A DNA stretch of 64,000 nt from positions 16,460,645-16,524,644 of the forward strand of contig OZ316893.1 of NCBI GenBank assembly GCA_973895155.1, read 5' to 3'. The position numbers were made by a program, and so were the translations under genes. Position 1 is the stretch's first letter. Each line of letters opens with the position of its first letter. The notes beneath the pieces were generated by a model. The model worked only from the letters and a program-made list of their open reading frames with translations. It searched no databases and was not told where the DNA came from. Below are positions 25,055-64,000 of the stretch, piece after piece. This stretch comes from Marsupella aquatica. Its lineage: Eukaryota > Plantae > Marchantiophyta.

Positions 25055-25388
25055 AACTGACCATGTGCAGATCCCAATCTCTCTTGTGCTTACACTGAAA
25101 TTGGAGTCCTTGCATGCAAAGGGTACGACCCTTCCCACCCGAAAGGAGAAAGTTGCAATGGATCTTGAACTTGTCAATCATCACGAGAAATGGCCGGGAT
25201 GGGGCAAGGCCCTCGTGGGATTGGTCCAGTGAATGTGGTCTTGACAGGTGGGCTGCTTTAGGTCAGTCATGTTAGAAACCCCATTTCTGCCGTCACCACC
25301 AAGATCACAATCAAGCTATGTTTGTTGAAATCCTAGTTAATTACTCACTCCAAATTTCCCTGGCTTTAACAAGCTATGTTGGAGAGGC

Positions 25389-26111
25389 ATGCATACTGTT
25401 GCTCCAGACTCTTATGGCGCTGGGGACCTGCTTGAAGAGCTTAGGAGGCTTGATCCCAGTCTTATTTTGTGTATTGCTAAGATGATTTGTACACCCTGGG
25501 ACTTAAGTATATATAGCTTCCACCTCAATGAGGTAGAGCAGATGATTTATATCCGCTGGGACAGATATGTGAAGTACAGTAGGAATATCATCCTACTCCT
25601 ACTAAAGACCGGTGCTGTGAAGTGTTTCATTCTTCACTGTTGTCATGTGGTCGATGGGAGTCCATTATATGAACCCCACTTTTATGCCCAAAATAGAGCG
25701 GCAGCATTTGAGGAGATCCAGAGTGCCATTGAGGACCTCCCAAATCCGCTTGACACTGAATTCCTCATTGACATTGGCGGAAAATTATATTCCTATCAGA
25801 CTTGACAACTACCCCCTCGACCTGTATGTAGGTTCTTCCCCATGGTTTTTGTCTGGGGTCTATGGACCAGTTTAATTGCAAATGGGGAGGTGTGTATGTG
25901 TTGCATTAATGCCTACTGTGACATTCCATCACGCAGGTATTCAATAGCAGTAGTCGATGAGGATACCCATGAAGTGGAGTTTCATTGGTTATGGGCTTAT
26001 TCTCATAAGGTCACCCATATCCCACGATGGCCTAAGAAGCAGTTCAGGCTAAGGGATGTTGGGGAATCAGATGCAGATTGGGATAGTGAAAGTGAGGACG
26101 AGTTTTGGTAG
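25389..26111 (+). pseudogene. ~240-codon hypothetical protein with one internal stop
   Basis: ORFs 25389-25805 and 25842-26111 share a frame across one TGA; acidic C-terminus DADWDSESEDEFW. Confidence 0.45.
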
Positions 26112-26386
26112 AACTGTCCAAGAATGGACCTGAAGGATGTTTGTTGCATCCTACAATTTTGTAGATTTTGTAGTTTTGGATCAAAGATCAACATTTTGTA
26201 ATTTTTGTGACCAAAGTAAGGTAATCAATGAGACTCTGCTTGCTGGTCTACTTCAGATGTTAAATAACTTACTTTGGTGATTTCTAATCAAAATCATCAT
26301 AGTTTTTGAGTCGACGTTCATGCTCCTTTTGTCTTGTTTGCAGGCCTGTGGGAGGTGGATGTAGAGTGGTCAGAGTGTTTCACAAC

Positions 26387-29300
26387 ATGCCTTCTGCCAC
26401 TGTATTTCAAGTAGACTTAGAGTCCGGAGAACGAAAACCGGTGTCCTCATATAGTTATAGGAAAGGAGAAACCTTTGTAGATGCCAGACAGAAGTTGGTG
26501 GCACACTTTGATTTTGAGTTCCAATTCTTAGATGTCAATCTATCTAGTAGGATGCGCAAGTCATGGGAGGTAGTAAATTCCTTAGACGATTGTGGGGGGG
26601 AAGTAATCATCATCCCCAAAAACCCCAGAGATGCTGCAGACTTGCCTGTCCAGAGTAAGGCAGTTCTGTCACAACAAGTCCTTGGAAGCAGCAATGCCTC
26701 CAATGGGCCTGATATCACAGCCAATGATGATCGTGCTGGTTCTCCCATATTGGAAGAACCCCCACTTGAACAGTCAACACCAGATTTAGCTGGCCCATCA
26801 GAGGAAGCTCACTCCCAGGTCAGTTTGGGGTCAGAGTTAATGACCAATGAATTAAAGAGGACATGGTCTTCATGTGTAGACAAATTTAAGGATCATATGG
26901 AGTCAATACAATGTGCTCACCACAAGTGGAGGGTGAGAACCTAGGACAAAGACAATGTGCCATGTGGACACATTGAATGTTGTGAGTGTGACACTCGCCA
27001 TGGTGTGACAAGGGTTTGATGGATAAGACATCCGTCAATAATGCCTTCACAAATTTCAAAAAGAAGCATATGATTTCATCAAAGCATGCCGCTCGTGTGG
27101 CATCTAACAGGGGTGAGAGGCTACACTCTAAGGAGGTTGCACGGAGGGCCCAAGCAAATACATTGACTGATCAAGCCATACTTGAGCAGCACCTAAAGAT
27201 TGTGCAAAAGGTTAATGAATCTCAGACTGTCGGGAAAGAGACATTTACAGTTTTAGGCGATGTGGAGAAGGACCCCTTGGAGTTACACAAATTCAAACTT
27301 TTGTGCAATTTCTGTTCAGAACACCTTGTGCTCATTCCAAAACAACGGAATTTGGAGCCCAATCTTGAAAGTCATTGTAATAGCATCAGTCATCTAAATT
27401 ATGTCACAAGGAGTCAAATGCCTGCTAGAGGAGAACCTATTCTATTTGGACGGCCTGGAAGACCTCGCCAAGTGGATGCAAGGGATGTCAAACAAAGGAC
27501 CATCCAAGGCTTTTTAACTCGGAGGCCAAGTGGAGGGCCGTCTAGCAGTTCCTCTTGAGTGTCTGCAGAAGAAGAAAGAGGTGGGCACTTATCTCTGTTG
27601 TGTTGGGGTCTTTGGCGTGATGCGGTCAAGTATGGTTCAGAAACCAGGCCTATTAAGGGAATCTTAAATGATCAGCTTAAACTTGAGGGACTTTGGTTTG
27701 CAGAGCCCTTGGTTGTAGAAGATGTGTTCTGTGTAACTGGGCAGGAAACCTATCACATTGAAGGTCTCTTTAGGCACAAGCTTTGCAATAGATTATCAAA
27801 ACTAGGGGGTGGCTTTCAAGACTTGACATGTGAACATTGTTTTAGTATAAAAGGGGAACCCAACTTTAGGCTTAGGGTTGCTAGAGAATTCAAGCCTCTG
27901 AGAAAAGAGGAAGCAGGGGGACTGGGAAGGGTCGTAGGTTAGATTACCTCATGGTTCCCGAGGTCCAGCAACAAGCAAAGTGTTATAGGAATCGAGTTCT
28001 GAGAGAATGAAAGCTACAGAGAATTCTTAGTCATAGATTACTGATGGTTAAGGCCCGTGTCCCACCCATTGGGGAAGTCTGCCTTAATTACCAGGAACCA
28101 AATAAGGCCACAGTGCTGAAGTTTTGTCAATCCATAGTCTTGGCACACAAAAGGGGTGCCTTTGGAGGGAGAGGTGCCCTGTGGGATATGTTGTCAGACA
28201 TAGCTTCGAACCTAAACAAAGAGAAGCAGGGTTACCGATATAAGGCAGGAACAAAGCTTCTCTGCCAAACACTCTTTTTGCATGGTGGGAGGCGCGTTGT
28301 TGATTGCCTTTCCAGTAATGGAATAGGTCCTAGTTTGAACACCCTTTAACAAGATAGGAGAGGGATGGCTGTGTTCCGTGCAGGAATTCATGCGTCTCAA
28401 TTCAAGTTCATCGCCAAAGTGTACTCACAATTAAAGGATCGACTTGGCATATGTGGACCGATTCCCTGTTTTATGGCAGAGGATGAGACTGTAGTGAAAA
28501 AACCGTGAGGTAATTACTATCTCACTTCATAACCTTTGGGTTGATGTACCTGCTGTTGTATATTTGAATATGTACACCAAAAAGGCAGCAACCTAAAAAG
28601 TCCTTCACCTTACGTTTGCAGATGGCTGCCAAAACATGATACTCTTATTGGGTTTTGTGGGAAGAGAACTGAAGGCCACCAATGTGTAGCAGGCTTGGAG
28701 GTGAAGGTGGGGGAGGGAGAAGCTGGGCTGCCATCGTCGATTCTTTTGAGAATTTCCGTGTAGGGAACCTAGCAAGGTGTATCATGGTCAATCCATTGGT
28801 TGTAGGGCTTCCTCACTTGGCTGTAATGGGCGATATAACATGTAATAAGTTTGATGGCCCTTGGGTCAGGCGCCAGTGGGACAAAGTGGAATCTCTCTGG
28901 ACAACTCATTGCCTGGAATCGGTGGGCCCTCTATTGGGACATGCCAGTGATGGGGATTCACGAAGGAGAAAGCTTATGTTGGAGGATTATAGTGGGAGAG
29001 GGATTGAGGGGCCAAGGCAAAACCTGGGTTGGGAAGGTTGGCAGCTGACTCACTCGATTACGACTACTGCCCAGGCCTCTGGAGGCTATGTTGTAGGACT
29101 CCATGATCAGGATTATATCCATAATGGGAAGAAGCTAGTGAACCCACTTGATTCAAGTGCCAGGATTTTGAAACTAGGAGCAGGTGTTGCAACCATAAGT
29201 CACTTGATACACTTAGAGGAGTTATATGAGGTGGCTCAGCATGGCTTGAACAAAGAGGACATACGTCGCAGAGATCGGCAGAATTGGGCAAGTGCACAAC

Positions 29301-30970
29301 GACTTTGTAGTCGTAAAGTCAGTAATTCTTTGCGACTGCTACGAGACAGAGCAGATGCTAGGGTTGAGCTTACACTTGGAATAGAGGTGTACATTAGGAT
29401 ATGTGCGGATTATTTGGACATTTTTCTTAACACTCAGCTCAGTTTGCGCGAGAGGATTGTTCTCTATGGGAAGGTGGGATTCTTTTTCAGGCTTTGGCGT
29501 CTATGGTGTTTTCATGGGAACCACTCAGTTGGGGGTAACACACACCCTATCACCTTCACCCATAGCTGTATCCCCATGCAAACATTCCTTGACATTCAAA
29601 TGTCGGTGCATTTTGTTGTTCTTTTGATAATCCAATTCAGGGACAAATTCCGAGATCTACCTGTACCCTTGCATTTGACTGGGTCAGATTCTTGTGAGCA
29701 GTTTTTTTCCAAAGTTGGGGGCATGAGGGGCAATGAGCAAAGCTATGACATATCAGAATTGGTGGAATGTGCTACTAATCTGAACCGGTTGGCTGCAATG
29801 GATTTGACTGAAGGAATTATGGGTGTGGGGAAGAGTCATAAAAAACACTCAACCATTTGGATGGGACTGCACCCAATAGAAACTGGGGTTGATGCAATAG
29901 CAGATCAAGCAAATTATACAGGAATCAAAACAAATGCAGAGGTTATCATTGCTTTGCAGGATGGGTTGGTATTGGCCCAGAGTATTGCAACTGAGTGTCA
30001 AATGAACCCTTCCACATCGGCCAGGGACAAGGTGTGGTGGACTTCACCTTGGACGACTGAGGCGAAAGGGGCTAAGTATGGTGGATGGTGTGATGTGAAT
30101 GTTGAGTCATTAGTTGATGTGGATGAAGGTTTGGATGATGAACCACCACCATTAGTACAGCCTGTTGTCCCAATGGAACAGACTCCTGAGGAGATTGCCA
30201 TGTTTTTAGATCCAGAGGTAGTGGATGCTAGCGCTGCAATTGAGGTTACCATGGATGCAATGCATTCTGACTTGGTGTATGGTGCCCCTAGACAGGAGTT
30301 TAAACCAACGGTATCTTACAAAGACAGGAGTATCTACAAAAGTACCCTGGTGAGCCAATTAGTGGGCAACCCACACCTTAGTAAGGACCGTCTCACTCGA
30401 GTGAAGCAGAGTATCTATTTCAACAATTTAGTGGATAAACCAAATGTGCGTGAAGGATCTCCATCCATGTTTATGACAGTTGGAAGTGACTGTGGAGTAT
30501 TTTTTGTTGATGACACTCCTCAGGGTAGAACCACTCGAAATACAGAGGCCATAGCTCGAGCAATGAAAGGGAAGGGGCATGCCAAGAAGTCAACCGATTC
30601 TAAAAGGCCTAGAGGTGAAGCTGTCACAATGACTTCAGTTAGAGGAGTGAAATATAAGTGGTGGATTGGACGAGTCCAAAGCATCCACAGGAAATATGGG
30701 AACAAGATCGGAAGATCAAGGGAAGCATTGGATTTGCTTGATAGGCCTGGTACTGAATCATGTTGTGAAGTGAGGTTCAATTGGTTTACTCCAATCGGGG
30801 CAACTGGGTGTAAGTTTAAGTATGATATGTGCGATCCTAGCAGCATTCCGTTGGAGGCTATCATTTCAACAGTGAGCTTTACTGTAGATCCATTGTACCC
30901 AAAAATCTTCATATTACATCCTGATGATGTAATAGCTCTTGACGATTTTGTAAAGAATAGAATAGTTTAA
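26387..30970 (+). pseudogene. P-element-superfamily-like DDE transposase with N-terminal C2H2-like fingers and a C-terminal BAH-like region; intron 28510-28621
   Basis: Motifs in P-transposase order: AEDET (D1), GHASDGD (D2), QDYIHNGKK (DxxH..K), DRQNWASAQRL, GSDSCEQFFS (E). The GT...AG intron joins ...TVR|WLPKHDTLIGFCG. Several stops and frameshifts upstream of ORF 28682-30970. Confidence 0.7.
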
Positions 30971-43900: not shown

Positions 43901-45031
43901 GTGGCCTCCACTTTAGTATGCTGTACACCCAATCATCCTGGGTATATAGTGTGGCCCAAATACTCAATCTGGTCTTGGAAGAACTTACACTTGCTAAGAT
44001 GGAGCTTCAACCCATGTGCTCTCAATCTCGCCAACATAGTCTGCAAGTGCTGTCGATGTTCTTCCACAGTAGAAGAATAGACCAAAATATCATCAATATA
44101 ACATCTGACAAAATCCAAACGTGCAAGGATTTGATCCATGACTCTTTGGAACTCAGCTGGTGCATTCTTCAACCCAAATGGTAAGAACAACCACTGATAC
44201 AAACAATCTTTGCCATAAGAATCAATCCCCCAAAATGTTGTCTTGGACCTGTCAGCGGGTATAGCGACGGAGATAGGAAACAGGTAAACAGGAAATGTTT
44301 TTTCTATTTTTAATATGCTGTTACCAGGAAAAAATCACTGTTACCAGGAAAAATGACAATTTAAAAATGTCTCCTAAAACATATTATTTAAAAAAAAAAT
44401 TAACAATGCAACATTTTTGGCTAGCTTTGGGCGCTACTATTAGCAGCGCCGGGCGCTAGCAAATAAAACTGGTCAACCAAAAAAAAAAACTTTTTTTTTC
44501 TCAAAAAAATAAATAAATAAAAAAATTCCACCCATTTTCCTGTTACCAGTTTTTTTTCCTGTTACCAGTTTCTGTTATTAAATCATGTTTCCTGTTTGTT
44601 GTCTTTTGTAAACACCTCCTGTCAGCATGCCTAATTGGAAGCTGATGGTACCCTGCCCTCAGATCCAATGAACTGAAAACCTTTGAATGCCCCATTACAT
44701 CAAAGATCTCCTCAGGTGTGGGCATGGCATATCAATCAGATTTTGTCTGGCGATTAATAGGTCTGTAATCACCACACATGCGTCTATCTGTGTGATTGTC
44801 ATGCACATCTTTCTTGGCTGGCATTACTGTGACATACTCCTCATATGAAATCTCCACCACTCCAGCCTCCAACAAATCTTGAGTTTTGCTTTGAATCAGA
44901 GCTCTCTCCATGTCACTATAACGGTATGGTCTATGAAAGATTGGTGCATCACTAGCCAATTCAATCTGAATACCAGGGCCCTTCAATGTCTCCAAATCCT
45001 TCATGTTGAATGCAAAACAATTGTCAAACAC
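43901..45031 (-). pseudogene. Ty3/Gypsy RT fragment, interrupted by a MITE-like insertion
   Basis: RMCGDYRPIN, LDLRAGYHQLPIRHADR|SKT, LPFGLKNAPAEFQ, YIDDILVYS, YLGH. Confidence 0.88.
44257..44618. mobile_element. 362-bp non-autonomous relative of the 52231-61400 element
   Basis: TSD CTGTCAGC at 44249-44256 and 44619-44626 (extendable to 9 bp). Left end GGGTATAG; both ends align with the large element. Two degenerate TAGCGCC-N-GGCGCTA motifs at 44422 and 44444. Confidence 0.85.
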
Positions 45032-49827: not shown

Positions 49828-51577
49828 TGTAATACAGTACATTAGTTAGAAATGATAGAAAAATTATAAATTTTGAACTTTTTCTAAGTCAATGGTGCAA
49901 TATAGTTACTTTTTGTAGCAATTTAGATCAACTGAACACTTTACCTAATGTCATGCTACACTACACCGGAGACTACTTCCTGTTCTGGATATTGAACGAC
50001 AGCGGAAGTCTTTACCTTTCTATCGGCATTACACTCAAGACATGGATGTAATTCAAGAAGCTATGCAAGAGAATACCTACACAAGAGTTCAGCAACCAGA
50101 TCAGACAACACTATTCCAACAAGATTAGTTCTCCTACAACAATAGTTAAGATCAGCCGATCTCTACAATTTTAGTTAAATAGTTAAAGTAGTTAGAAAAG
50201 TCTCATACTTTTTCAGGAGATAGCCCTTATGTAGCAGACCCTCCCCTGAAAATATTAGCCAAAATCGACATGTTGTTTAGAAGTTATAGCATTTTTAGTT
50301 TTGCTTAAGTGTAAGTGCGCAAAGGCGCAACGGCGCTTCCGACACTTGGAAAATTTTCCAGAATAGTGTATTTTTTATCCGACAGCACTTTTCACCGATT
50401 TTATTAAGGCACTTAGACATCTCAAAAAAGTCTAAAATTTTGCAAGCATGTAGCATGTATATAAATCTTCCACCTAGGAAAGTTTCACCCTATTTTGACT
50501 TTTATGTTAGAAATTAAAATTCCGATAAATTCACTATTTATTAGTTTTACCACAAAAGTGCAAAAAACACTTTTACTCCAGTTTACACTAGGGATAACTT
50601 TTGGTTAGTTTTTCATTCCAACAACATTCTAGTGAACCTTGAGTACTCTTATAGCATATTTTCATACTTTTTACTTTAGTTTATGATCCTTAAGATGTGA
50701 CAGGGCATGTCCTTTCATTATCTTTTTTCCCCTTTAGTTTCTGCTAGCCTATATGTAGTAGAGTTTTTGCCACTTTTTGTGTGAAGAAATTTTATGAGCC
50801 CTCAGTTGCAAGATTGCAACTTTGTTACCTCCATTTGTAGCAAGCACTCCATTGCATATGAGTACTTAATACAAAGGAATTTTTCCCCCTTCAAGTCTAA
50901 ATGAATGAGAAGTTTGGACCCTTGAAGTAAAATTATTGTGATTGTTAAATCTTTTGAGTATGTGGAAATAGATTCCTTGTTGGTGATGTTTCACATATTC
51001 CTTAGTTCTTGATGCATAGTTTTTGACGTGACATTGCTTGTGCACGGGATGCAAAGATTGTTACTTACCAATTACTTATGGCTTCAAATTTGATTATGAT
51101 GGTGTCTCTTATTTGTGACACAAAGTACCGATTGGATACAGAAGTGATTGATTACTAGTCTCCACTCAGTACCTTGGAAGGAAAAGTTGAGACATGTTGA
51201 CGGCATTTTAGTAATCATCCTAGTACCGTAATCCTTTCCAAAAATGTTCTTGCGGATATACCACCTAAATCATATCAAATGAAGTTATGTTGAGGAGTCA
51301 CCTTGGTTGTTTCCTAACTCCCTCACCATACCTCAAGATTTTCATTGTGTTTTATTAATTGTTTCTATTTGTTAATTTTATTTTTAATGTCAAGCAGACA
51401 TTTAAAACTATGCCTTGCTGAGCAACCATAGTAAAAGGCTCAACTTTGTGTTTTTGTTACCTTATTCATTCATAAGTGCTAAATCATAGAAAATCATTCC
51501 TTAAATGTTCTTCCATGGGAACGAATACCAAGTTTTGGATCTTAAATGTTCATTTATGTCCCTAGTGTGATACTACA
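49828..51577 (+). mobile_element. Solo LTR, family B, short form (1750 bp)
   Basis: TGTAATA...TACTACA; TSD TTCTG at 49823-49827 and 51578-51582. Retains only the last ~56 codons of the LTR-B ORF. Confidence 0.92.
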
Positions 51578-51582
51578 TTCTG

Positions 51583-52230
51583 GTCATCAAGTTGACTGAG
51601 CACCACACCAATACAAAAACCAGACACATCCACATACACATGGAATTTTCTACTCCAATCAAGTGCTATCAAGATAGGAGCTTCAACCAACCTGTTCTTC
51701 AACTCCTGGAAACTTGCTAGCCTCTCAACTGAGGGTTCGACCTCAGCCCCGTTCTTAAGCATGCTGGTTAGGGGTAAAGCTACTTTAGCAAAGTCCTTAA
51801 TGAACCTTCTATAGTAGTTTAACATCCCAAGAATCCCCTCAACTCTGTTACTGAAGTTGGAAATTGGACAGCCATCCAAACAGCCACCTTTTCTTGATCC
51901 ACCTCGATGCCTTTCTTGGATACCTTGTGACCAAGTAGTATCCCTTCTTCCACACCAAAGAAGCACTTCCCTGGGTGAGCTTCAAACCAACTTTCCTACA
52001 TCTTTGGAAGGTCATCCTCAAATGTTCAACATGGTCCTTCCTCCTTCCAAAAACAGCAAAGTCATCTATGAATACTTCCAAGAACTTTCTCAAGTAGTCA
52101 TGAAAGATATTCATCATCAACCTTTGGAACATACCAGGGGCATTACAAAGACCAAAAGGCATCCTCCGAAAGGCATAAATCCCCCACTCAGTAGTAAAGG
52201 CTGTCTTCAACTGGTCCTCCTTCCTTATCC
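51583..52230 (-). pseudogene. RT/RNase H segment of element D
   Basis: KTAFTTEWG, MPFGLCNAP, FIDD, YYRRFIKDFA, VDVSG. Confidence 0.9.
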
Positions 52231-52269
52231 GGGTATAACCACCATGCTAGCAAACAGTAAATAGATATT

Positions 52270-52402
52270 CTCATACGAGCCAATTTTTTCTCGTACGAGT
52301 AAACAAGTTCCTCGTATGAGCATATCTATTTACTCGTACGAGTTTCTGTTTTCTTGTATGAGTTTCTGTTTTCTTGTATGAGTATTTTTTTTTCTTGTAT
52401 GC
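52270..52402. repeat. Subterminal array of the 10-bp palindrome CTCGTACGAG (~7 copies, 20-22-bp period, CpG-decayed)
   Basis: ctcatacgag, ctcgtacgag, ctcgtatgag, ctcgtacgag, cttgtatgag x2, cttgtatg. Confidence 0.8.
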
Positions 52403-52602
52403 ATTTTAGTTTCTTCTCTTCAGGGTATAGCGTCCATATATGCAATAATTGTGCGGACAATATTATGGTGGGTCCCACCATTGTACAACATCAGAGGAAA
52501 TTTCTTGACGATTTCACGCAAGGACTCCAATATATTGCCACAAAATATGAAGTCAAAACAAAGTCATACAATACTAGCGCCCTAGAGCAGTGTATAACTC
52601 AC

Positions 52603-54590
52603 CAGTCTTATGAAGTTCCCCCATTGTCTCCATCAGACAACCCACCAAGACAGCCACCCTTGCAGCATCCAAAGTTTGCCTGAGTGACAATTGCCAGACC
52701 TCCACCAGTCATCGATTTCCCTCGAGATTCGATATGCTTTCAAGAAAGTTGGTGCGTTCCGAAGACGATCCCACATCTCCTTGTGCTCTCCGTGCTTTCC
52801 ATCTTTCACACCTTCTTGGGAATGATGATGAAAAGATTGGAAAAATGAAAGGCATCTGATCTTTCTCGCTCTGGGTCGGGTACACCGTCAAAGAACACGT
52901 TTTGAACAATATTCCAACCAGCCTAAGCATTGTCCGCCATGAATCCCCAAATTGTAACATCCTGTAAACCATTTTCATCGGCAACCTCTAGCATCAAACG
53001 CCAAGCTCTCTCCAGAGATTTTGCATCTTCGGCCTTTAGCTCACAAGTGAATATGGTGCAAAGTGCCCGGTAATGATGATCATATACATGGGCACTGAAA
53101 GTAAGCCAATCTGCCGTGCTTCGATGCATCACGTCAAAACTTACCCATGAACCCTCTAACGACCCACCAGGTTTCATTCTTTGGAGCAGGTCCAGACCAC
53201 TCCCATCACCTTTTACGGTCATTTTAAAGATATGAGCACTCTCGTCCCGGCAGCCTTGACCAGGGAGCAAGAACCTATGAAGAAAAGGCAATCGGATACA
53301 CTTTTGCATCCTCACAAGAAATTCCAGTTCCCCTTTCCCCTTCTGATCTTGACGGACACTCCTTAACACGGATGCAAACTTCTGAGGAGATGCCATGACC
53401 ATCAGGGACTCCCAAATTTCCTTCTCTTCTTCGAGAGAGATTTCTTCAACAGAGGCCTCGCAAAATGTATTCGTCAGTGTCTCAATCGCAGAGTTTTTTA
53501 TCCCTGCTGGGGATGCCATGGGGTTTGCAATGAATCCCTTCTCCAGATGAGACCTTGCAACCTTTTTTGCCTCCCTCAAAAAGACCCGTCGACTGGGATG
53601 ATTGTGAAATCCCATATGAATAGCTAGTCGCGACATGTGGGCCAAAGACTTAACGTCAACTTTTGCACATGGATACATGTAGAACATTAGAGCAGGGCAG
53701 GCCTCAACACACATCGGAGGTTCGGAGCAATGGTGACAAACAACTCTACCTTCGGAGATCAACTCCCCAACTCGGAATGGGCCCAAAAGTTCTGGGGTTC
53801 TTGCCCACATCTCATTATTTTGAAACTTGTTGTCTTTCCACCACGGACAAGCATTATTTTGACACTGCAGCGATCCCGTACACTGGACTTTCCTGAAATC
53901 CCACATTTTCTTCGGAAGAACATTTGAAGACGTTTTCACAATCCGAGTCCAATAATAACAATCCTTACCACGATCCATATCTTTCAAACGTTCACCTTTT
54001 GCGTTCACACAGTCTACCGGGGGTAACTCAAAAACCACATTCCCATTGTAAGATGTGGGAAGACTAGGCACTACGTGATGAACAAAATCACTCCCCCTTA
54101 TAAATCGAGACAATTCACTATGACCTTTGGATTTCAAGATTGTATCCATTGCACTTTGCCGGTACGCAGTCAAAGGCACAATCTTTTCTCGATCCGCATT
54201 AGACTCCTTTTTAACCTCGGATGGGTAAACTGGAATCTTCTCTCTGAGAGTAGTTGTCGCTTGCTTATCATCTCCAGAACTTTCCGAGAGTTCGATGACA
54301 TCGAGTTCAGCCGCTATGGGAGGACGAGTACAGGAGGCCCCAGAATCTCTCAAAACAAAAACCTCATATTCTTTGTGAGCCTCCAGAGTCCAATATCTTT
54401 GATCATAGAAAATTGGAGTCTCCCCCAAACAAACCGATACTAACGATATTGCTAAAATAGACTCCTTGGCGACATCAAATCTCACTCCCAAATATTCCTC
54501 TAAAACACGCTTTGATTCAGATGATTCGAGGACGGGAATTGTGATTACATCCCGAGTGTCCTTTCTCGTGACAACGATATTTTGAGCCAT
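52603..54590 (-). pseudogene. MULE-type transposase with WRKY/GCM-like Zn module; 3' part decayed
   Basis: 555-aa ORF with CTGSLQC...C..C...C...C...HMGFHNH, then FDVMHR (D1) and GFMADNA (D2). Past the stop it reads AGWN...SDAFH (CxxH position) and a W-rich WLSWW segment ending at a GTGAG donor at 52602. The catalytic E and SWIM domain were not seen. Confidence 0.72.
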
Positions 54591-54765
54591 GGCTTCAAAC
54601 GAGGGATATGCCTTTGCCCCGCGCGAAATGAAATATGTTTATTATGAGATTCAAGTACGAGAAGTAAACGTTTCATTCTCACTATAGAGTCGTTATAGAT
54701 TTGGACGCACTCCATCAATGACGTTTTGTCGTCTTACCAACGACAGGATTTGGGTTCATAGTTAC

Positions 54766-54909
54766 TAGCGCCTGGCGCTACATCTAAGTGTAAAACACTC
54801 TTGGGTGAGGACTACGAATGCCAATAATAATAGCGCCTAGCGCTACCTCTGGGTGCAAACATTCTTGGGTGAGGAGTACGAAGACAATTAATAATAGCGC
54901 CTGGCGCTA
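54766..54909. repeat. ~64-bp tandem repeat upstream of the transposase, each unit starting with TAGCGCC-N-(G/A)GCGCTA
   Basis: Motifs at 54766, 54831 and 54895 with similar spacers (cttgggtgagga.tacgaa). Confidence 0.85.
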
Positions 54910-55312
54910 CCTATTTCAATGGACTTGAAAACATTCAATGGAAGGAAAAGTACGATAACGCGATACAGTACGAGTCATTAAGTTGACACGCTTGAAGATC
55001 TCCACTGGATCTTCTCGAATCCGATCCGCCCGGGTCCAAATGTGTCAGAAAGGAAGCATCTCCGAAAGTTCTCTCAGAGAGTCCTCTTCGAAGTGGGTAC
55101 CCGGGACCAAGTGCCAATTCTCCTTATATCTCATTGTTCTCATCCGATGTCCTCATTGTTGAGCCATTCTTCACTGAGTCGTAGTTGTGGCTCATCTTTT
55201 GAGCGCGTGGTTCTTGTTCTTGCTTTTGGGCCCAGTGGTTCTATTTCACTTTCGTGCGGGTTCTTGTTCTCGTTGTCGTCCTCGTTTTTCATTCTCATCC
55301 TAGTTTGCGCTC

Positions 55313-55786
55313 TTGTCCTCGTTCACATTCTTGTTTGCGCTTCTTGTTCTCGTCCTTGTCCTCACTTTCAATAGCACCTCACGAGGGAAGGCAAAGGAGG
55401 AGGCACTTGTCCCAAGCGACACCGACCGGGAGACCCCCACATCAAATAGCTTACCGCCTCGGCCGAATGCCGAGAGGATGACGGTTCCAATCTTGAAGAA
55501 GGGCAAACTCATCTCGAAGACGAAGAATGCCCCACCTGCGGGCCGCAATGAAGGATCCAGTCGGCCAAATCCGAGCGGCCCGACTTCTGTTCCCGCTAGG
55601 GATATCTCCCGCCGTCCCAGAGCTGACACTATCTGCACGGGTGTCTCTGAGCCTTCTTCATCCACTGAGAGTGATCGTTCTTTGAGCGGGGACTCATCAC
55701 CGAGCAGGCAAGGATTTGCGTGGTATGGATCGAGCGACTCAAATGACGACTCTGATGCGTACAAGCCAAGTTGGTGGGAAGACTAA
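55313..55786 (+). CDS. Possible low-complexity S/P/K-rich ORF inside the MULE-like element
   Basis: 157-aa ORF with a non-ATG start (KGKAKE..., ends DDSDAYKPSWWED). An equally long antisense ORF exists, so strand and reality are uncertain. Confidence 0.3.
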   Translation: MSSFTFLFALLVLVLVLTFNSTSRGKAKEEALVPSDTDRETPTSNSLPPRPNAERMTVPILKKGKLISKTKNAPPAGRNEGSSRPNPSGPTSVPARDISRRPRADTICTGVSEPSSSTESDRSLSGDSSPSRQGFAWYGSSDSNDDSDAYKPSWWED

Positions 55787-57085
55787 TTTCCCGTTGTCAG
55801 AGTGTATCGTTCGAGTGCTGGACAGACTTGGAGGATCCATCGAGGTTGATAGGATCTGTTTCCACTCATTTTTTCCGATAGAAAACGTATACTGTTCCTT
55901 CATCATATGCCGGATTTCTAGTGTACTGTAACATTTTGTATGTGAACGGCATAGCCGTTCATTTTTACCTCGATGTCAATGCTTTTGAATTCTAAATACC
56001 AAGCTTTAATTTCCGGTTCTACTCCTGTGCTTGCTTTGTATTTCTGAATGCGAGCCTGCTCAATTTCTTTGAAATTGTCGTAAACACTCGTTTGCTGTGA
56101 ATGTTTTTAGTAGCATTCGGCGCTATTATGAGAAACAAAGCGTCCTTAACAGTGTCGTGACATGTCTTATCTTTAAATTGTTTTGGATAGTGTTGGGCGC
56201 TATTAATTAAAGGAATCAAAAGTCAGACCCGTTAGGAGTTATTTTTTACTTTTATTCCAACAAATTCTGTTCAATTGATGTTTATTTTAATAGCGCCAGG
56301 CGCTATTGTAATTCATTGGAATATTCGTTGAATGAATGGGTGCATGTGGTCATGTTTGTTGTCATTGGACTCCAATTTCATCATTTATTTGAATACTAGC
56401 GCCGAGCGCTACTAAACTCGGCTTGTCGACACCCGCACAAAATTGGAAAATTTATAGACAGTAGTATTGATATTACTGCCCGTAGATACATGAAGACGGT
56501 TTTCCAGATACATTTGAAGGTATGTTTTATAATAGCGCCTGACGCTATCCACAACTACCGACACTGATGTGGTTCCAACGGTCACTTTCCAACAGTAATA
56601 TTACAGTAGATTGAGGTTCACGGAACCCTTTTTGATTTTTTCTGGGATGAAAGTCCAATTGGAGAATGCCATCTGTACTTGGGACCATTGTAATCGAATG
56701 GCTGGGTCCATTGTATCGGTGTATTAATACAAGGTGGAGATCGCTCATTTGGGATAATTTAGTCCGTCTAAGCGCTCAGACCTCGGACTGTACGAGTTTG
56801 TCAAGTGCGTATGTGCATCCTTTATTGGTCCCATACATTTTGAGACGTGATCGTGACAAGAACTGCACGGCGCGTACGACAGTGCCGGGTGGTCGCGTCG
56901 CTCTCCACGGCAACTTTTGGCTGGGTGATATGGGAATGGGGGAGGCTGATGGTGGTCATTCTGAGTCCTCTCAGTCTTTGTTTGCTGGTTCAGTATACAC
57001 CCGTCACGTCACTCGATCGACCGCATCCCTGTCAACTTCCGAAGCTAAATCTGCACAGCCCTTCCCGAGGTCGAGGAGAGGGAGA

Positions 57086-60000
57086 ATGGACCCTAAGGAG
57101 GTCTCCATGGGTGAAGTCAGTGACATAGGCTTATCGATGGATGAGGTAATATCAAAGCACGCATTGTCGTTCGGGAAGGATTTTCAAGGATTCGATAAGG
57201 AGCCACCTCGAATTCCTCTTTGTAGATTGCTCCCCATGGAGGTTGTTCGAACCTTACAGAAAGAAAGTGCATCGATCGAGAAGTTGAAAGAATCATTCTG
57301 GGTCACCGGGTACAACTCGCGCATTGGGATGCCTTTCTACGTTTAGCCTGCGAATGCCAATGGGGTTCCTCAAATATGCACCAGCGAGATCCGGGACTCT
57401 TGGGATCCAATCTGGGTCGCAGAGAACAACAAGTTTGAGGAAGAGTGTGCTGCGGACCCAGCGTTCCATATTCTAAAAGATAAAATGTTTTGTGTGTTTG
57501 ACGGAAATCATCGATTGTACTCCTGGTCAATCGTCACCAGGGAGAATCCGGACAACTTGAAGTATCATCCTCGTGTGATTTGCGTCATTTTCAATGGTGA
57601 CAGAGGTTCGCTAGTTGAGCTCGAGGCGGCAATGCACACCGTGAACTAGTAAGTTCTATTCATTAACTGTTGTTACCCTTGTCATTCATTTTGGACCAAA
57701 CAACGAAAGTGTTCATTCCCCAGTTTTTGCTAGCGCCCGGCGCTACTAATTCCTTTTCATTGCATCCAGGCTTGGACAAGCAGTCGTCGAGCCTTCCTGG
57801 ATTCTTGACGCGGACAGAATTTTCCAAATTTTGTCGCGTGATCTTGATCACTATAAGCCACTCATCGACAACGCAAACATGGCAAAGTTTGAGGCGATCC
57901 GAAAGAAGACGAGAAAGGGGTCTTGGTTTACACATAAAATGCCACAGGATGCTCTCATCTACATTCTGTGTGTGGACAAAATCAAGTCTTACTCAAATCA
58001 ATTTAAGTCTGATATGGCTTTAGCCAAAGCTCAAGGGGCTCCTTGGTCAAAAGAGGAGAACACAAAGAGGCATGAGGCAATGATGAAGGAGGCGACCAAA
58101 GATTGGTCGATCAAAGTGACGAAGATCACCCCTTTACTTCATCCGGATTTTGGAGATTATTTGGGAACCTGTGCTGAGATGTATCCCGTAACTGATAAGA
58201 ACAAACAGGAGAAGGCCAGACACAGTTGTATGCACAATGGATCGAGCCAGGTTGTTTACTACTGTTTCATACCTGGATCCAAAATTGAGGTGCACCCTTC
58301 TAGTAGCCCACTGCACTCCCGAGATTCAGAAACAGTTTTTCCATCCTGCAAGTGTCAACGACGAGCTTGTGAAGCAGTGGTGCCATACATGGCATACTTG
58401 GAATTCTGTGGAGGGAATTGCAACTGGAATGCTTCACACTTCCTTCAAACAGATTTCTAACCGAATGTCGGCTGACTGTCTCACAAAATCTGGGTGTGAG
58501 TCAATGGAGGCCATGCTTAAGATCATTCTTGATGAATTCAAAAACTTTGGGGATCTTGTAAAGGCAAAATTCTTCAACAACTTGTGGCCTTCCAAATATG
58601 CGGACAAGGAAGATTACACAAAGCGGAACCGGAAGAGAGCCAAACGATATCTATACCGGTTTTACATGTGGATGGAGCTTAGATCTCCAGACACACTGTG
58701 GGCATACCCGGCTGCATTTCAGAAATGGGTGTCTATCGAAGAGGGAGACGCTCTTGCCAACCTGTATTCGATGTACCCAGCAGAGGGAAAGTTTCCACCA
58801 CGTTCATTGTCGGAGTGGGAGAGACTTCACTGTCCGTGGTACCTCGACACAGACAAATGGGATTTACCGTTCGACGAAGCTGAGAAGGATGCCTTCATGA
58901 AGTTGCAGAAGTCCCAGATCCCCGCCAATTACGTGTCTGCAATGAAGCAAGGTCTCCAGTCTGATGTTGACGAATCTGCATCTGAGTTACAGAAGAATTG
59001 TGAGTCTCTTGTCATGCACGTTGACCGAAGCCGTAACCCAAGAGCAAAGGCGAAGAATGAGTCAGCTGCACCAAGTGACTCCACAAGGTCCTTCAAGAAA
59101 AGTGAGTAGTCTAAGCGCTTTTTGGTTACTTGTTGGCGCTGCTTATGCAGGAGTTTCATTTGGAAATTCCTTTGATTAATAGCGCCTGGCGCTAGTCTGA
59201 AAGGTTGGACTCATGCAAGTTTTTGTGCCTAACAGGAGGTCGAAAGTCCGACACGGAGGTCCCGGCTGCCGAAGGGAAGAATGATGCAACTCCTCAGGCA
59301 TCGGAGGCAAACACTGGAGCTCAAGAAACCCCGGATCAAGGGACCCCGGATGGTGCTGGCAAATCCATTGTCCCTGTTGACGCAACTAGCACGAAGAAAA
59401 AGAAAAAGAGAGGCACCGGTGAAGACAGAGGAGCATCATCTACTCGAGACGTTATTTCATGTGGACTCTAGAGAGATGTCGGAAATTTTAAGCGAAGGTG
59501 TTCTAGACACTGTTTTGTGGAGTCCAATTTAAATGAATTTTACGATTTGGTATTTAACAAGGGGATGAAGCCCATGTGGGTTACTAAAGTTGAGGCCTGG
59601 GGAAAGGAATTGGTAAAGTCAGGAGACAGAGAGAAGGGAGTAATGCATGGCGGAAAAGAGAGGGGCTTTGGTGTGGATGCTGGTTTCATCTACATTCCCA
59701 CTGGATTAAAACCAACACTTCTTGATCGGAAGGTTCCCAAGTGGAACCTTCAGGATTACACTATTCCCAGCTCTTTCTTTCGAGCCATGGAACCGTTCCT
59801 GGCAGACGATGGCCTACTTGCAATTTTACACAGAGGAGACTATGATCAGGTATCTGAAGTGATTGCGGCTTGCCAGGATTCAAAGTGTTTCCAGTGTATT
59901 TCAACCCACCATGTGGTCATGACTACACCAATGTATAGGCCCCGATCTGATACTCAGGTAACAATTCCTCTTGCACATACTAGCGCCCGACGCTACTATC

Positions 60001-60689
60001 AGCATTCGCTATATCTACAATTCACTTATCTTTCGTAAGGATGAAGGGTTGACTAGCGCCAAGCGCTAATATATGTGTCTGTTTTCTTATACTGCCTTCA
60101 TTGGGAAACTGTGTTGCAGATATTCACACTTACTCTTAATATATTTTGCCGCATTTTGACAAAGGGAAGGGTCCCGAAAGACCCCAAGTTCCGGCCACTA
60201 TCGAATGCAGAAGACCCTTCCGTCACTAACATTATTGGGTTTTCATTGCCGTGACATGACCCGACTCCTGAGCTCCAATTTGTAGGAAATTCACGCTTGC
60301 CTGTGGGTTTCATGCAAACTATTTTGGAATTGGTGACTCTTCCTGGAGATATCGTTATGGACTGGACAGTAGGTTCCGGTAGTACGTTTGTGGCTGGAAA
60401 TTATTCTGGTCGCTTTGTTGTTGGGCTGGAAAATTGGCCAGAGTTTGTTGATACTTCCGGTAAGGTCTTCCTCGATCTTTTACAGAACAAAGAAGTGGTT
60501 GCACCAACTCCTCCTAAGAAGATTCCTGGAAGTAAGAAGCAGGACAGGCTCCGTGTTGTTCTAAATTTTGATTCGGAAGACGAGGATGAGGGTGGCAATG
60601 CTTCTCAGCAATCTAAAGATGATGAGGTGTCGAAGAATGTGGTGGACCTTGGATCTGGAGATGAGGACAGTGAAGAGTCAGAAGAGTAA
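57086..60689 (+). pseudogene. ParB/Srx-like domain plus helical region plus beta-class N4C/N6A DNA-methyltransferase-like domain; introns 57649-57769, 59102-59235, 59958-60119
   Basis: IPLCRL..VR.L...L..SF...GY...FYV and VFDGNHRLYSW (57500-57514). Then VDAGFIYIPTG (motif IV position), FLADDGLLAIL, RLPVGFMQTILE (X), PGDIVMDWTVGSGST (I), GRFVVGLE (II). The three GT-AG introns preserve frame; several stops and one frameshift are present. Confidence 0.75.
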
Positions 60690-61400
60690 TTTTCTTTAGC
60701 TTTCTTTCTCTCATTGTATACTTTTTTCCAAAGAACTCCTATACTCCCTTTTGTCTAGAAAATTTGCCCGATTTCCCGACTTCGACTAAAGAACTCCAGT
60801 TCAAATTCTCAGGTCAGAGTGGAATCTTCGGAGGCGTTTTCAACTTCGAAGGAACGTCTCTAGGAACGTTGTACAGACCCCAGAGAAGCCATTTGTTCTC
60901 CCCTCTTATGCTGAAAAGGCGGCACAACGGGCAGATTCAGTCAGGACGCTTACTTGGGAGAGTAAGGGTCTTAGACTCAGGAGAGGCTCAGATAGAAAGT
61001 TTGTGCAGAATCACTTCGTAGATGATATTGCAAAATCCAAGTATGTGGACGACGAAGCAGAGTCCACTGATAGATCAGAAAGTAGCGGTTCTGAATCGGT
61101 CTCAGAGTCGAGTGGTGGTTGTGGAGAACGACGACACTAAATAAGAACGCAATTACGTGTCGTATTAGAGTAGCGCCCGACGCTATTACTGTAGCCGGTA
61201 GTTCAAAGAGGTTTTTATTCGGATGTTTTCCTTATAGCGCCCGGCGCTAGTATAAATGTACTCAATGGCCGCTTCAGGTCCAATATATGTGACAATATTT
61301 TCTTATCCTTCAGTGTCTTTTTTTGGGTGCACATTTGCTGGTATGAGTTTTGTTGTTTGTTGTTTGTTGTTTGCTATTTGATGTCACGGAGAGATCCCCC

Positions 61401-62231
61401 CCTTATCCAAATCTGGTTGTAACCTAAGTACCCATCTAGGAAGCTATACACTTCCCAACCAGCTACTAAGTCAAGTACCATATCAGTAAAGGGAATGGGA
61501 TAGTGGTCCCTCTTAGTGGCCTCATTGAGTTTCCTAAAGTCTTGGCAAACTCGGATCTTAGGCTTACCATCCAAGCCTGGTTTCTTTGGTACAATGACAA
61601 TTGGGGAAACCCACTCACTATTCAACACAGGATAGATGAAACCTGGTTCCAACAATTTGTCTATCTCTTCTTTCACCATCAAGGAGTACTTGGGATTCAT
61701 TTTATATTGCCTTTGTCTCACAGGTGAAGCTCCTAGCATCAAGTCAATTCTATGCTCACCGAGTTCAGGGTTTACACCAGTAAGATCCAAGTGACTCCAA
61801 GCAAACACATCCACATATTCTCCTGGTAAATCTTGGATAGTTTTCTCTTCACCTGATCCCAAGGCATTTCCCAAGTTGAAGGTCTTGTCTTGCTGGACAG
61901 AGATGGTTCTGTACTGCTCAGCTTGAATCACCTCCATCTTGTTCCTCATTGTGGAGTCAAAAGTGTCTTCAAGTTGTGCCAATCTCATGCCTCCATAGAC
62001 TGGTGCATTTTCAGCACTTAACTCCTCCTCCTTGCTTGAATGCTGGTCTTCATGAGTCTCATCCTCCTCTAAGTTTTCAGCCCCCAATTGGTCCTCCAGC
62101 TCCTTTATCTTGAGCTTCAACAAGGCCAAGTGTTTAGCCTTCACCCTCTGGTCATGAGTCCCCTTCTTAATCTCAACTTGGGGAGCACCCTTGCTGGTCT
62201 GATCAGCCTCCTGAGCCACTGTGACAGTGTC
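61401..62231 (-). pseudogene. RT N-terminal segment of element D
   Basis: DVFAWS, SEWVSPIVIVPKK, CQDFRKLN, LDGYLGYNQIWIR. Confidence 0.9.
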
Positions 62232-64000
62232 TGTAATAAAGTAGATTGGTTAGAAATGATAGAAAATTTATAAATTTTGAACTTTTTCTAACTCAAAAGC
62301 GCAGTATAGTTACCTTTTGTAGCAATTTAGATCAACTGAACACTTTACCTAATGCTATCCTTCATTGGAGGCTATTGTATTGGACAAGGATCGATAATAT
62401 AAATCCTTGCTCTTTACATGCTACCAAAAAAGAAGATTGGACATCATTGGAGAAGCAATGCAGGCTAGAAGATTCAAGAACCGGACTCCAAAACACTTCT
62501 TCAACAAGAATGAGCTCTGTATATAATTATCACAATCAGCCAATCTCTGCTATTTTAGTTAAATAGTTCTCACGGTCAGAAAAGTCTCATACTTTTTCAG
62601 GAGGTAGTAGTTGCATAGTAGAATCATCCCTTAAAGTTTCATCTCAAACCGACATGTGGTTTGAAAGTTAAAATTATTTTAGTTTAGCTATTTTTTGCAT
62701 AGCCACGACTTCGCCGACGCTTTGAGAAGCGTCCCTTGTATTTTTGGACGCTTTGAAAAGCGTCCACCCAAGACCACGACGCTTTGAGAAGCGTCCACAT
62801 GAGAAGCGACGCTTTCGGAAGTGTCCACCAAGTTTCGACGCTTTCTGAAGCATCCGCCACTCCAAAGGCGACATCGACACTGACGCTGACTGAAGCGTCG
62901 CACCCGAAGCCCAGAAGCCAGATGCTGCGACCAAAACCTCGAAATTCAGCCGACGCTTTCTGAAGCGTCCACAAAAGTCCTTTGTAGTTTTGGACGCTTT
63001 CTGAAGCGTCCACTATGTTCTCGACACTTAGAAATATTTTCATTTTTCGCACTTTTATAACACCACGCTGCTTTTATCGATTTATTTGAGGCACTTAGAG
63101 ATCTCAGAAAAGTCTGAAACTTTGTCAGCATAGAGATTATATGTAGTAGAGTACCCTTAGTTTAGAAGTTAAAATTAGATTAAGATCACTGTTTATTAAT
63201 TTTACTACAAACACCGACGCTTTGCAAAGCGTTCGCTCAAACCTCGACGCTTTGAGAAGCGTCCCCTACATTTTTGACACTTTCAGCAGTGTCCATTCAC
63301 TTTTCAAGGATGACCGTCATTAAGTTTATTCAAGACCCTTTAGATATGAAAGGGCATGTCCTTTTAGTCTCTCAGTCTCCTTGCGTTCCAGCTAGCCTAT
63401 ATGAAGTAGAATTTGTGTCATTTTCAAGTGTGAAGAAATAAAGTAGTGCCTGTGACATGTGCTGCAACATTGGAATCACCTTTGCAAAGCTTTCGTGTGT
63501 TTTCGTGTGGTATGGAGCTTGCAAATGCAAAGGAATTCTTCTCCCTTCCTTGGTCTGAATGATTGAGAGTTTAGATCATTGAAGTAAAATTATTTGTATG
63601 GAGTTGAATCTCAGAAGTATGAGGGAATAGATTCCTTAAGTGGTGACAACCCATCTTCTTGAGTTCTTGATGCATAGTTTTTGGCATGACATTGCTTGTG
63701 CACGGATGCAAAGATTGTTACTCACCAATTACCTGTGACTTCAATTTGATCATGATGGTGTTTATTATTCGTGACTCAGAGTACCGACTGGATATCGAAG
63801 TGATTGATTACTAGTTTCTTCTAAGTACCTTTGGAAGGAAAAGTTGAGACGTGTTGACGGCATTTTAGTAATCATCCTAGTATAGTAATCCCTTCCAGAA
63901 ATGTTCTTACGGATTTACCACCCAAATCACATCAAATAAAGTATTGATGAGAAGTTACCTTGGTGTTTTCCAGACTCCCTCATCATACCTCAAGATTTCA
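62232..64000 (+). mobile_element. LTR family B, diverged short form (B3), running off the window end
   Basis: Starts TGTAATAAAG. The first ~120 bp match 49828-49950 and the rest is colinear with B1/B2. Predicted TSD GTGTC. Confidence 0.85.
62716..63294. repeat. Array of ~11 18-bp palindromes GACGCTT-N4-AAGCGTC in LTR-B3
   Basis: gacgctttgagaagcgtc, gacgctttgaaaagcgtc, gacgctttctgaagcgtc and variants, irregularly spaced. Confidence 0.85.

Follow-up and report, generated by a model that had tools for sequence, protein, structure and literature searches.

We analyzed a 64,000-nucleotide stretch of the genome of the liverwort Marsupella aquatica (contig OZ316893.1, positions 16,460,645 to 16,524,644; hereafter the window, whose own numbering is used throughout). 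Positions 52231 to 61400 are a decayed copy of a multi-copy plant DNA transposon without terminal inverted repeats (TIRs). This element carries a transposase gene resembling those of Mutator-like elements (MULEs) on the minus strand and, divergent from it on the plus strand, a second gene (gene 2), which encodes a predicted ParB/Srx-like domain followed by a methyltransferase-like domain. The non-coding DNA of the element holds 12 copies of a 15-bp palindrome.

A single insertion with two divergent genes

The element is a single insertion of 9,170 bp, flanked on either side by an exact 8-bp target-site duplication (TSD), CCTTATCC. Both flanks are contiguous within a Ty3/gypsy reverse-transcriptase (RT) sequence, each having been compared with another copy in the window. 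In public contigs from two of four runs (X2 and X3), position 52222 is joined to position 61401, with 9,178 bases skipped and 8 letters shared, indicating that these contigs represent the empty site of the 9.2-kb element. No TIRs were found: inverted matches of one 300-bp end to the other reach 9 nt at best (E 0.26). A TIR element was rejected. The TSD-bounded, non-TIR unit proposed in an initial annotation of the window is thus confirmed. G...C ends without long TIRs are a feature of non-TIR MULEs, and the GGG...CCC ends seen here agree with this. TSDs of MULEs are usually 9 to 11 bp.

52231-61400, unstranded: MULE-like DNA transposon of 9,170 bp without TIRs, ends GGG...CCC, host site a Ty3/gypsy RT
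52223-52230, plus strand: left TSD CCTTATCC, 8 bp exact, 9 bp if one mismatch is allowed
61401-61408, plus strand: right TSD CCTTATCC, 8 bp exact
52256-52412, unstranded: left subterminal repeats, with inverted arms of 34 nt (85%) and direct repeats of 20 bp, set around words that resemble CTCGTAYGAG
52603-54590, minus strand: core exon of the MULE-like transposase, with ATG at 54590, an N-terminal Cys/His set, D486 (FDVMHR) and D553 (FMAD)
44257-44618, unstranded: 362-bp non-autonomous relative with an exact 8-bp TSD (CTGTCAGC), the same GGGTATA left end and one-mismatch palindromes at 44422 and 44444

The 362-bp relative is a second insertion, and the transposon family has thus inserted at least twice in the window. 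It is AT-rich, has no coding capacity, ends in C and sits in another RT fragment. Of 127,296 45-mers, the one at its left end matches the left end of the large element best; its right end matches the large element weakly, with 10 others as good. Its TSD, like that of the large element, is exact over 8 bp; over 9 bp, the duplication has one mismatch in the large element and none in the relative. The first 10 bases of the relative recur inside the large element, as GGGTATAGCG at 52423-52432, 192 bases from the left end, and other copies of the large element have small insertions at 52427. The left subterminal repeats are candidate binding sites of the transposase.

The public contigs suggest a multi-copy family with subfamilies. 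Runs X1 to X3 each gave 1,673 to 2,937 contigs spread across all 30 bins, 137 to 366 of which were less than 90% alike, and diverged pieces lay over both genes; the pieces are short, and their summed depth does not equal copy number. X3 or X4 may stem from the source of the window itself. Run X6 came from a third organism and reached 28 of the 30 bins.

The transposase gene and its layout, divergent from gene 2, are as the initial annotation described them; its assignment to the MULEs is tentative. No Pfam family, MULE families included, matched the window transposase or seven homologues. Its neighbors by protein language-model features carry MULE/ZSWIM RNase H-like families (0.76 to 0.82, scores that serve as leads only). 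Eleven relatives were found at E ≤ 1e-3, ten of them unnamed or hypothetical and one a partial Riccia sorocarpa protein. D486, D553 and ten Cys/His residues of the N-terminal half are invariant across the homologues; the Cys/His region may resemble GCM/WRKY domains. A 2,078-bp metagenome contig (L001) encodes a transposase relative with 64% identity in the best segment and has a further exon after an intron, which holds the likely Glu; no such last exon was detected in the window copy. Judged by these features, MULE-like is the best label. The window copy carries a TAG at 52923, a frameshift near 52840 (where other copies have an extra base) and a TGA at 52633. Between the two genes, a 160-codon stop-free stretch of low complexity (55304-55786, plus strand) has no credible Pfam match.

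Gene 2 probably comprises about 1,220 codons and four introns, with its start at 56930. The exon model was built from GT-AG sites, reading phase and homology, and the start codon was placed by the lengths of homologues.

56930-57648, plus strand: exon 1, a low-complexity leader and the predicted ParB/Srx-fold domain (VR..., DGNHR, ...N); in-frame TAG at 57344
57770-59101, plus strand: exon 2, a helical middle region with 26% identity to R. sorocarpa P0168; frameshift near 58238
59236-59957, plus strand: exon 3, a linker and the N-terminal half of the methyltransferase-like domain; YIPT at 59691-59702; TAG at 59469
60120-60685, plus strand: exon 4, motifs X-I-II (PF01555 profile 165-218, E 1e-7); TGA at 60252; acidic tail
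60813-61140, plus strand: probable exon 5, in frame past a GT-AG intron (60686-60812); resembles Riccia C-terminal tails (P0181, E 0.002)

This model replaces the estimate of about 1,000 codons and three introns made initially; the order of landmarks, DGNHR, then YIPT, then a C-terminal D-x-x-x-G-x-G, is retained. If intron 4 is left unspliced, gene 2 stops at 60687; 60813-61140 might also be a small gene in its own right. Gene 2 is colinear with R. sorocarpa proteins along its entire length; for P0168, which has 1,207 aa, this was seen with each of the four large exons. The window copy has four stops and one frameshift, one of the stops being formed at the junction of exons 1 and 2; other copies have C at stop positions 57647 and 59469. 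With lesions in both genes, the window copy is a pseudogenized one, as had been noted.

A family of eukaryotic genes

Relatives of gene 2 are numerous. A HMMER search of 1.84 billion proteins with exon 1 gave 226 clusters at E ≤ 1e-3, after a word-based search for longer relatives of the same exon had yielded none among 301 candidates. The 29 cluster representatives looked up comprised 12 from R. sorocarpa, 4 from Adiantum and 13 unnamed or only hypothetical; all named relatives, from R. sorocarpa and two Adiantum ferns, are hypothetical proteins. The C-terminal domain was matched by 26 further R. sorocarpa proteins. In UniRef, many Riccia members (P0166, P0168, P0169 and others) are labeled "Trimethylguanosine synthase," probably through automatic mislabeling.

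In R. sorocarpa, eight or more separate long contigs carry copies, a distribution that suggests transposon-like spread. Among 108 aligned relatives, 86 end within 60 residues of a conserved Asn, at the position of intron 1 in the window, which argues that the family is eukaryotic and intron bearing. A quick phylogenetic tree of 99 of 140 rows (those covering fewer than 115 of 148 positions were left out) separated a fern group, a group of Riccia plus the window and a third, unnamed group; a branch of 34 rows that holds the window and 9 of 10 Riccia rows had a support of 92. The tree has no outgroup, so no donor can be inferred from it. Because gene 2 recurs in other copies of the element, in R. 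sorocarpa and in ferns, we rejected a one-off capture of a host fragment; the initial annotation had likewise treated gene 2 as part of the element. Neither of the two outcomes that it had named as refuting it, such a capture or a lack of ParB/Srx or methyltransferase profile and structure matches, was observed. The prokaryotic origin that it proposed is inferred solely from what the domains resemble. Viral contigs, prokaryote genomes and phage records yielded no homologue of full length, and the only locus recovered with flanks was L001, with none in viral contigs or prokaryote genomes.

The palindromes also belong to the element. Exact TAGCG-N5-CGCTA occurs 12 times within it and is absent from the other 54.8 kb of the window, in line with the suggestion that the element has its own palindromic sites; 300 Markov simulations of the element produced none. 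None of the 12 lies in coding DNA, which made up 56% of the element in that test (P ~5e-5).

54766-54909, unstranded: three palindromes (54766, 54831, 54895) in a 64- to 65-bp repeat upstream of the transposase
56111-56547, unstranded: palindromes upstream of gene 2, exact at 56291, 56397 and 56533 and with one mismatch at 56111 and 56188
57731-57745, unstranded: palindrome in intron 1 (57649-57769)
59180-59194, unstranded: palindrome in intron 2 (59102-59235)
59981-60068, unstranded: two palindromes (59981, 60054) in intron 3 (59958-60119)
61171-61249, unstranded: two palindromes (61171, 61235) near the right end

The only near-perfect palindromes elsewhere in the window are the two in the 362-bp relative (44422 and 44444). 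At 1107-1303 of L001, in the transposase intron, lie three palindromes that share the half-site and have a core of 2 nt (14 bp in all). The site thus accompanies the transposon family and differs from one relative to another. Scanning viral contigs gave 54 loci with palindromes, none with a homologue, which we take to be chance, and translated palindromes in the homologous proteins were not above shuffles. A different palindrome, GACGCTT-N4-AAGCGTC, occurs in ten copies (≤1 mismatch) at 62716-63263 and nowhere else in the window; this array lies in a repeat related to 10271-11919 and 49964-51579.

A predicted ParB/KorB-like fold and a methyltransferase-like domain

The N terminus of the gene 2 protein is predicted to have a ParB/KorB-like fold. 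In a model of the Riccia homologue P0165, residues 11 to 170 have block predicted local distance difference test (pLDDT) values of 80 to 98. Compared with 48,161 PDB chains, the five best matches of this model were KorB, PadC, pNOB8 ParB, sulfiredoxin and SerK, all of them ParB/Srx proteins, which bears out the ParB/Srx-like N terminus noted initially. KorB matched with a Z-score of 7.2 and a root mean square deviation (rmsd) of 2.8 over 93 residues, and ParB-CDP with a Z-score of 7.9 and an rmsd of 2.7 over 95 residues. When the Foldseek matches were realigned, the top 24 chains were all ParB/Srx; against viral structures, the best Foldseek match was a ParB-like phage protein (E 0.0086), with none at E ≤ 0.001. 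Profile matches within the same superfamily were weak (DGQHR TIGR03187 in 4 of 139 members; ParB-like phrog_1033 in 3 of 139).

The GxxR phosphate-binding motif (Box II) reads DGNHR in the window protein, and [DE]GNHR is present in 96 of 150 matches; an upstream Arg (84%) and a downstream Asn (87%) are conserved as well. Judged by their order, GNHR and these two residues may correspond to Boxes I to III. Residues 150 to 420 of P0168 have as their nearest clusters by language-model features the fungal DUF3723 proteins (score 0.96, an alignment-free lead). No match to Pfam DUF3723 (PF12520) was found among the 139 members, and a literature search found no paper that treats DUF3723 and ParB jointly; DUF3723 may hold a ParB-like domain.

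The C-terminal domain is of the beta-class amino-methyltransferase kind, in the motif order given by the initial annotation. Exon 4 matches Pfam PF01555 (N6_N4_Mtase) over profile positions 165 to 218 (E 1e-7, above the cut-off), and the PDB sequences that match it best are those of the beta-class enzymes DpnA, CcrM, PvuII, MboIIA and RsrI (E 0.003 to 0.95). The PADLOC type II methyltransferase profile matches P0168 at 1000-1166 (E 1e-4), and exon 4 matched 255 phage records, of which most of the listed ones are DNA methyltransferases. The pattern of motif I, which binds S-adenosylmethionine (SAM), is found in 23 homologues. Profiles built from the transposase, ParB and methyltransferase alignments gave nothing meaningful among PDB sequences.

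The presumed catalytic motif IV was assigned by position and pattern; the profile matches cover mostly the SAM-binding end, and neither they nor a model extend over it (the model of this domain had a pLDDT of 36 and was not used). In the window, it reads YIPT. We rejected the view that YIPT reflects decay of this copy alone, as it is shared by nearly all copies covered and is thus the normal motif of the lineage: in four runs the Asp position holds Tyr, or His in a single minor variant, and never Asp. Around YIPT, four of the six variable places in 91 bases are third codon positions, which, with the codons that are open in other copies, is consistent with selection on the protein. Among 206 proteins, 19 matched the motif pattern, 18 from Riccia with D[LM][PS][ST] and one from a fern (P0089) with DVPF. 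The canonical (D/N/S)PP(Y/F/W) is found in none of the 19, and in the window lineage neither the Asp nor the aromatic residue is present. In the bdelloid rotifer N4CMT, replacing the first and last residues of SPPY is described as abolishing activity (PMC8885841). The Riccia and fern motifs render active methylation doubtful in liverwort-like members, and a domain with motif I kept and motif IV degenerate looks conserved but likely inactive here. The methyltransferase-like domain of the window lineage is thus probably devoid of DNA methylation activity, judging from its motifs, while fern members with DVPF may still methylate.

Possible roles of the gene 2 protein

Our preferred reading, to which we assign a probability of about 0.42, is that the gene 2 protein binds the palindromes and regulates the element, its methyltransferase-like domain being non-catalytic. 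A dimer would recognize TAGCGC-N3-GCGCTA, as ParB, Noc and KorB recognize palindromes of 13 to 16 bp. Binding of a nucleoside triphosphate (NTP) at the DGNHR pocket could then drive loading at the palindromes and spreading over the element, and the methyltransferase-like domain, its SAM-binding motif kept and its catalytic motif lost, would serve as a DNA- or SAM-binding module. The outcome would be that host silencing does not inactivate family members, an effect like that of VANC on VANDAL.

The closest parallel in organization is VANDAL/VANC of the Arabidopsis non-TIR MULEs, likewise a DNA transposon with an accessory gene and a short motif present in many copies and confined to non-coding DNA, with motifs in introns and in tandem repeats upstream of the transposase, as here (PMC5735166). 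VANC motifs change between relatives (PMC5735166), as does the core of the palindrome (2 nt in L001 and 3 nt here). The proteins and sites differ: as described, VANC is a DUF1985/DUF287 protein with asymmetric motifs of 8 to 9 bp (PMC5735166), whereas here a protein with a predicted ParB fold and a methyltransferase-like domain accompanies 15-bp palindromes, and no Pfam match to DUF1985 or DUF287 was found in the open reading frames (ORFs) of the window or in gene 2 homologues.

By predicted structure, the best matches of the N-terminal domain are the clamps of the KorB/OB, Noc/NBS and ParB/parS systems. KorB, a clamp with CTPase activity, loads at a palindrome and controls its plasmid at a distance, with its palindromes dispersed (10.1101/2024.02.16.579611). 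The OB oligonucleotide described there contains TTTAGCGGCTAAA and shares TAGCG with the sites of the element, possibly by chance (10.1101/2024.02.16.579611). Unlike ParB-type clamps, gene 2 has GNHR as Box II and a fused methyltransferase-like domain, and it is known here from its sequence and predicted fold. Fusions of ParB with N6_N4 methyltransferases in phages and prophages have the same order, a ParB fold and then a PF01555-type domain, and are on mobile DNA too (10.1101/2025.10.10.680097). In contrast to these, gene 2 is eukaryotic and intron bearing, encodes some 1,200 aa, including an extended helical middle region, and has a non-canonical motif IV.

Several points weigh against this reading. 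The fold was modeled on a Riccia homologue and not on the protein of the window itself; Z-scores of 7 to 8 are middling by the tool's own note, and Foldseek E values against the PDB were 0.23 or higher. Pfam ParBc matched none of the 139 members, the only match being DndB (3 of 139, best E 0.028), and a ParB-like helix-turn-helix is not established, as alignments to model residues 360 to 395 had an rmsd of ~6 to 12. Many ParB-fold proteins, such as sulfiredoxin and SerK, are not clamps, 17 of the 28 that were tested did not bind an NTP, and sequence does not predict which nucleotide is chosen, according to a survey of the fold (10.1101/2025.10.10.680097). The linkage of the two genes is seen in this window alone, L001 being too short to reveal it. 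Lastly, the palindromes also occur in the transposase intron of L001 and in the non-autonomous element, a distribution that binding by the transposase would fit equally well.

That alternative, in which the palindromes are bound by the transposase through its conserved Cys/His N-terminal domain, so that the element is activated or assembled, and the ParB-methyltransferase protein acts independently of these palindromes, for instance as a cofactor in transposition or as a chromatin protein of general function, seems to us rather unlikely. It draws on the three half-site palindromes of L001, the two in the non-coding 362-bp element and the ten invariant Cys/His residues, and it has a precedent in AtMu1, whose transposase by itself binds motifs and switches on cognate copies (10.64898/2026.08.24.746577). 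However, AtMu1 binding is at TIRs (10.64898/2026.08.24.746577), whereas here promoters and three gene 2 introns hold most of the palindromes, well away from the ends, and the different subterminal repeat at the left end could serve the transposase.

A stronger form of regulation by the gene 2 protein, which we consider doubtful, would make it an NTP-dependent clamp in the style of ParB/parS that loads at the palindromes and slides on plant chromatin, with the methyltransferase-derived domain marking or shielding the element; the domain would be active in some ferns and a reader in liverworts.

Self-marking by methylation, which the initial annotation put forward, is weakened by the motif IV data, although the SAM-binding motif is kept. 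In its full form, an active DNA amino-methyltransferase, delivered by the ParB domain, would mark its own element with N6-methyladenine (6mA) or N4-methylcytosine (4mC). The PF01555, beta-class PDB and PADLOC matches are compatible with such an enzyme, and so are the Asp kept in 19 of 19 matched homologues and the DVPF of fern P0089; ParB-N6_N4 fusions are common in phages (10.1101/2025.10.10.680097), and C5 methyltransferases on retrotransposons are reported as active (PMC5890265). With no canonical motif among the 19, Tyr at the Asp position in the window lineage, the loss of N4CMT activity on replacement of the first and last SPPY residues (PMC8885841) and profile matches mostly at the SAM-binding end, we find this distinctly unlikely.

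Least probable is that gene 2 is Pack-MULE-like passenger cargo, amplified with the transposon and of no use to it: the four stops and frameshift of the window copy, the many split or partial Riccia models and linkage to the transposase in the window alone would suit a passenger, but gene 2 is complete in length, is conserved between liverwort and ferns, an intron position included, has its pocket residues kept and its codons open in other copies, and has no single-copy host donor among the named matches.

Other eukaryotic methyltransferases offer partial parallels to the regulator that we favor. Marchantia DN4MT1 and bdelloid N4CMT are likewise bacterial-type amino-methyltransferases in eukaryotes, one of them in a liverwort (10.1101/2021.02.12.428880, PMC8885841). 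Both are described as host genes, N4CMT with SPPY and a chromodomain and the Marchantia enzyme without extra domains (10.1101/2021.02.12.428880, PMC8885841), whereas gene 2 is multi-copy transposon cargo with a predicted ParB fold and no SPPY. The N6A methyltransferase domain of DIRS1 (PMC4738411) and the C5 DNA methyltransferases of Copia and DIRS elements (PMC5890265) also reside on eukaryotic transposable elements, and the DIRS1 domains are described as likely inactive (PMC4738411), which parallels the degenerate motif here. Those elements differ in being retrotransposons with other methyltransferase classes and, as described, in having neither a ParB NTP-binding fold nor a palindrome array (PMC4738411, PMC5890265). 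DUF3723 is a conserved accessory cargo of fungal Starships, eukaryotic mobile elements as well, which, unlike this element, use a tyrosine recombinase (10.1101/2021.12.13.472469). These proteins may be a parallel case, which would make ParB-fold proteins a recurring accessory of eukaryotic mobile elements.

The organization is thus of a known kind, a transposon with an accessory regulator and cis motifs, and its parts are new to that kind. A literature search of paper listings and text passages found no description of this element; the supporting files of PMC4738411 and of the ParB survey could list such proteins. The main text of that survey has no matches for "plant" or "transpos," and its named eukaryotic example is sulfiredoxin (10.1101/2025.10.10.680097).

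ParB-type nucleotide switches have been studied in bacteria, plasmids and phages, and the element offers a direct test of clamp loading and sliding on eukaryotic chromatin. If the favored reading is true, it would provide a second route of transposon anti-silencing, molecularly unrelated to VANC. Some 6mA and 4mC signals in seed-free plants could stem from transposon cargo, and the likeness to DUF3723 offers a testable fold hypothesis for that family.

Elsewhere in the window, a 765-aa open frame at 28673-30970 (plus strand), accompanied by ORFs at 25341-27558, has no Pfam match; our impression is that it is possibly the transposase of another DNA element.

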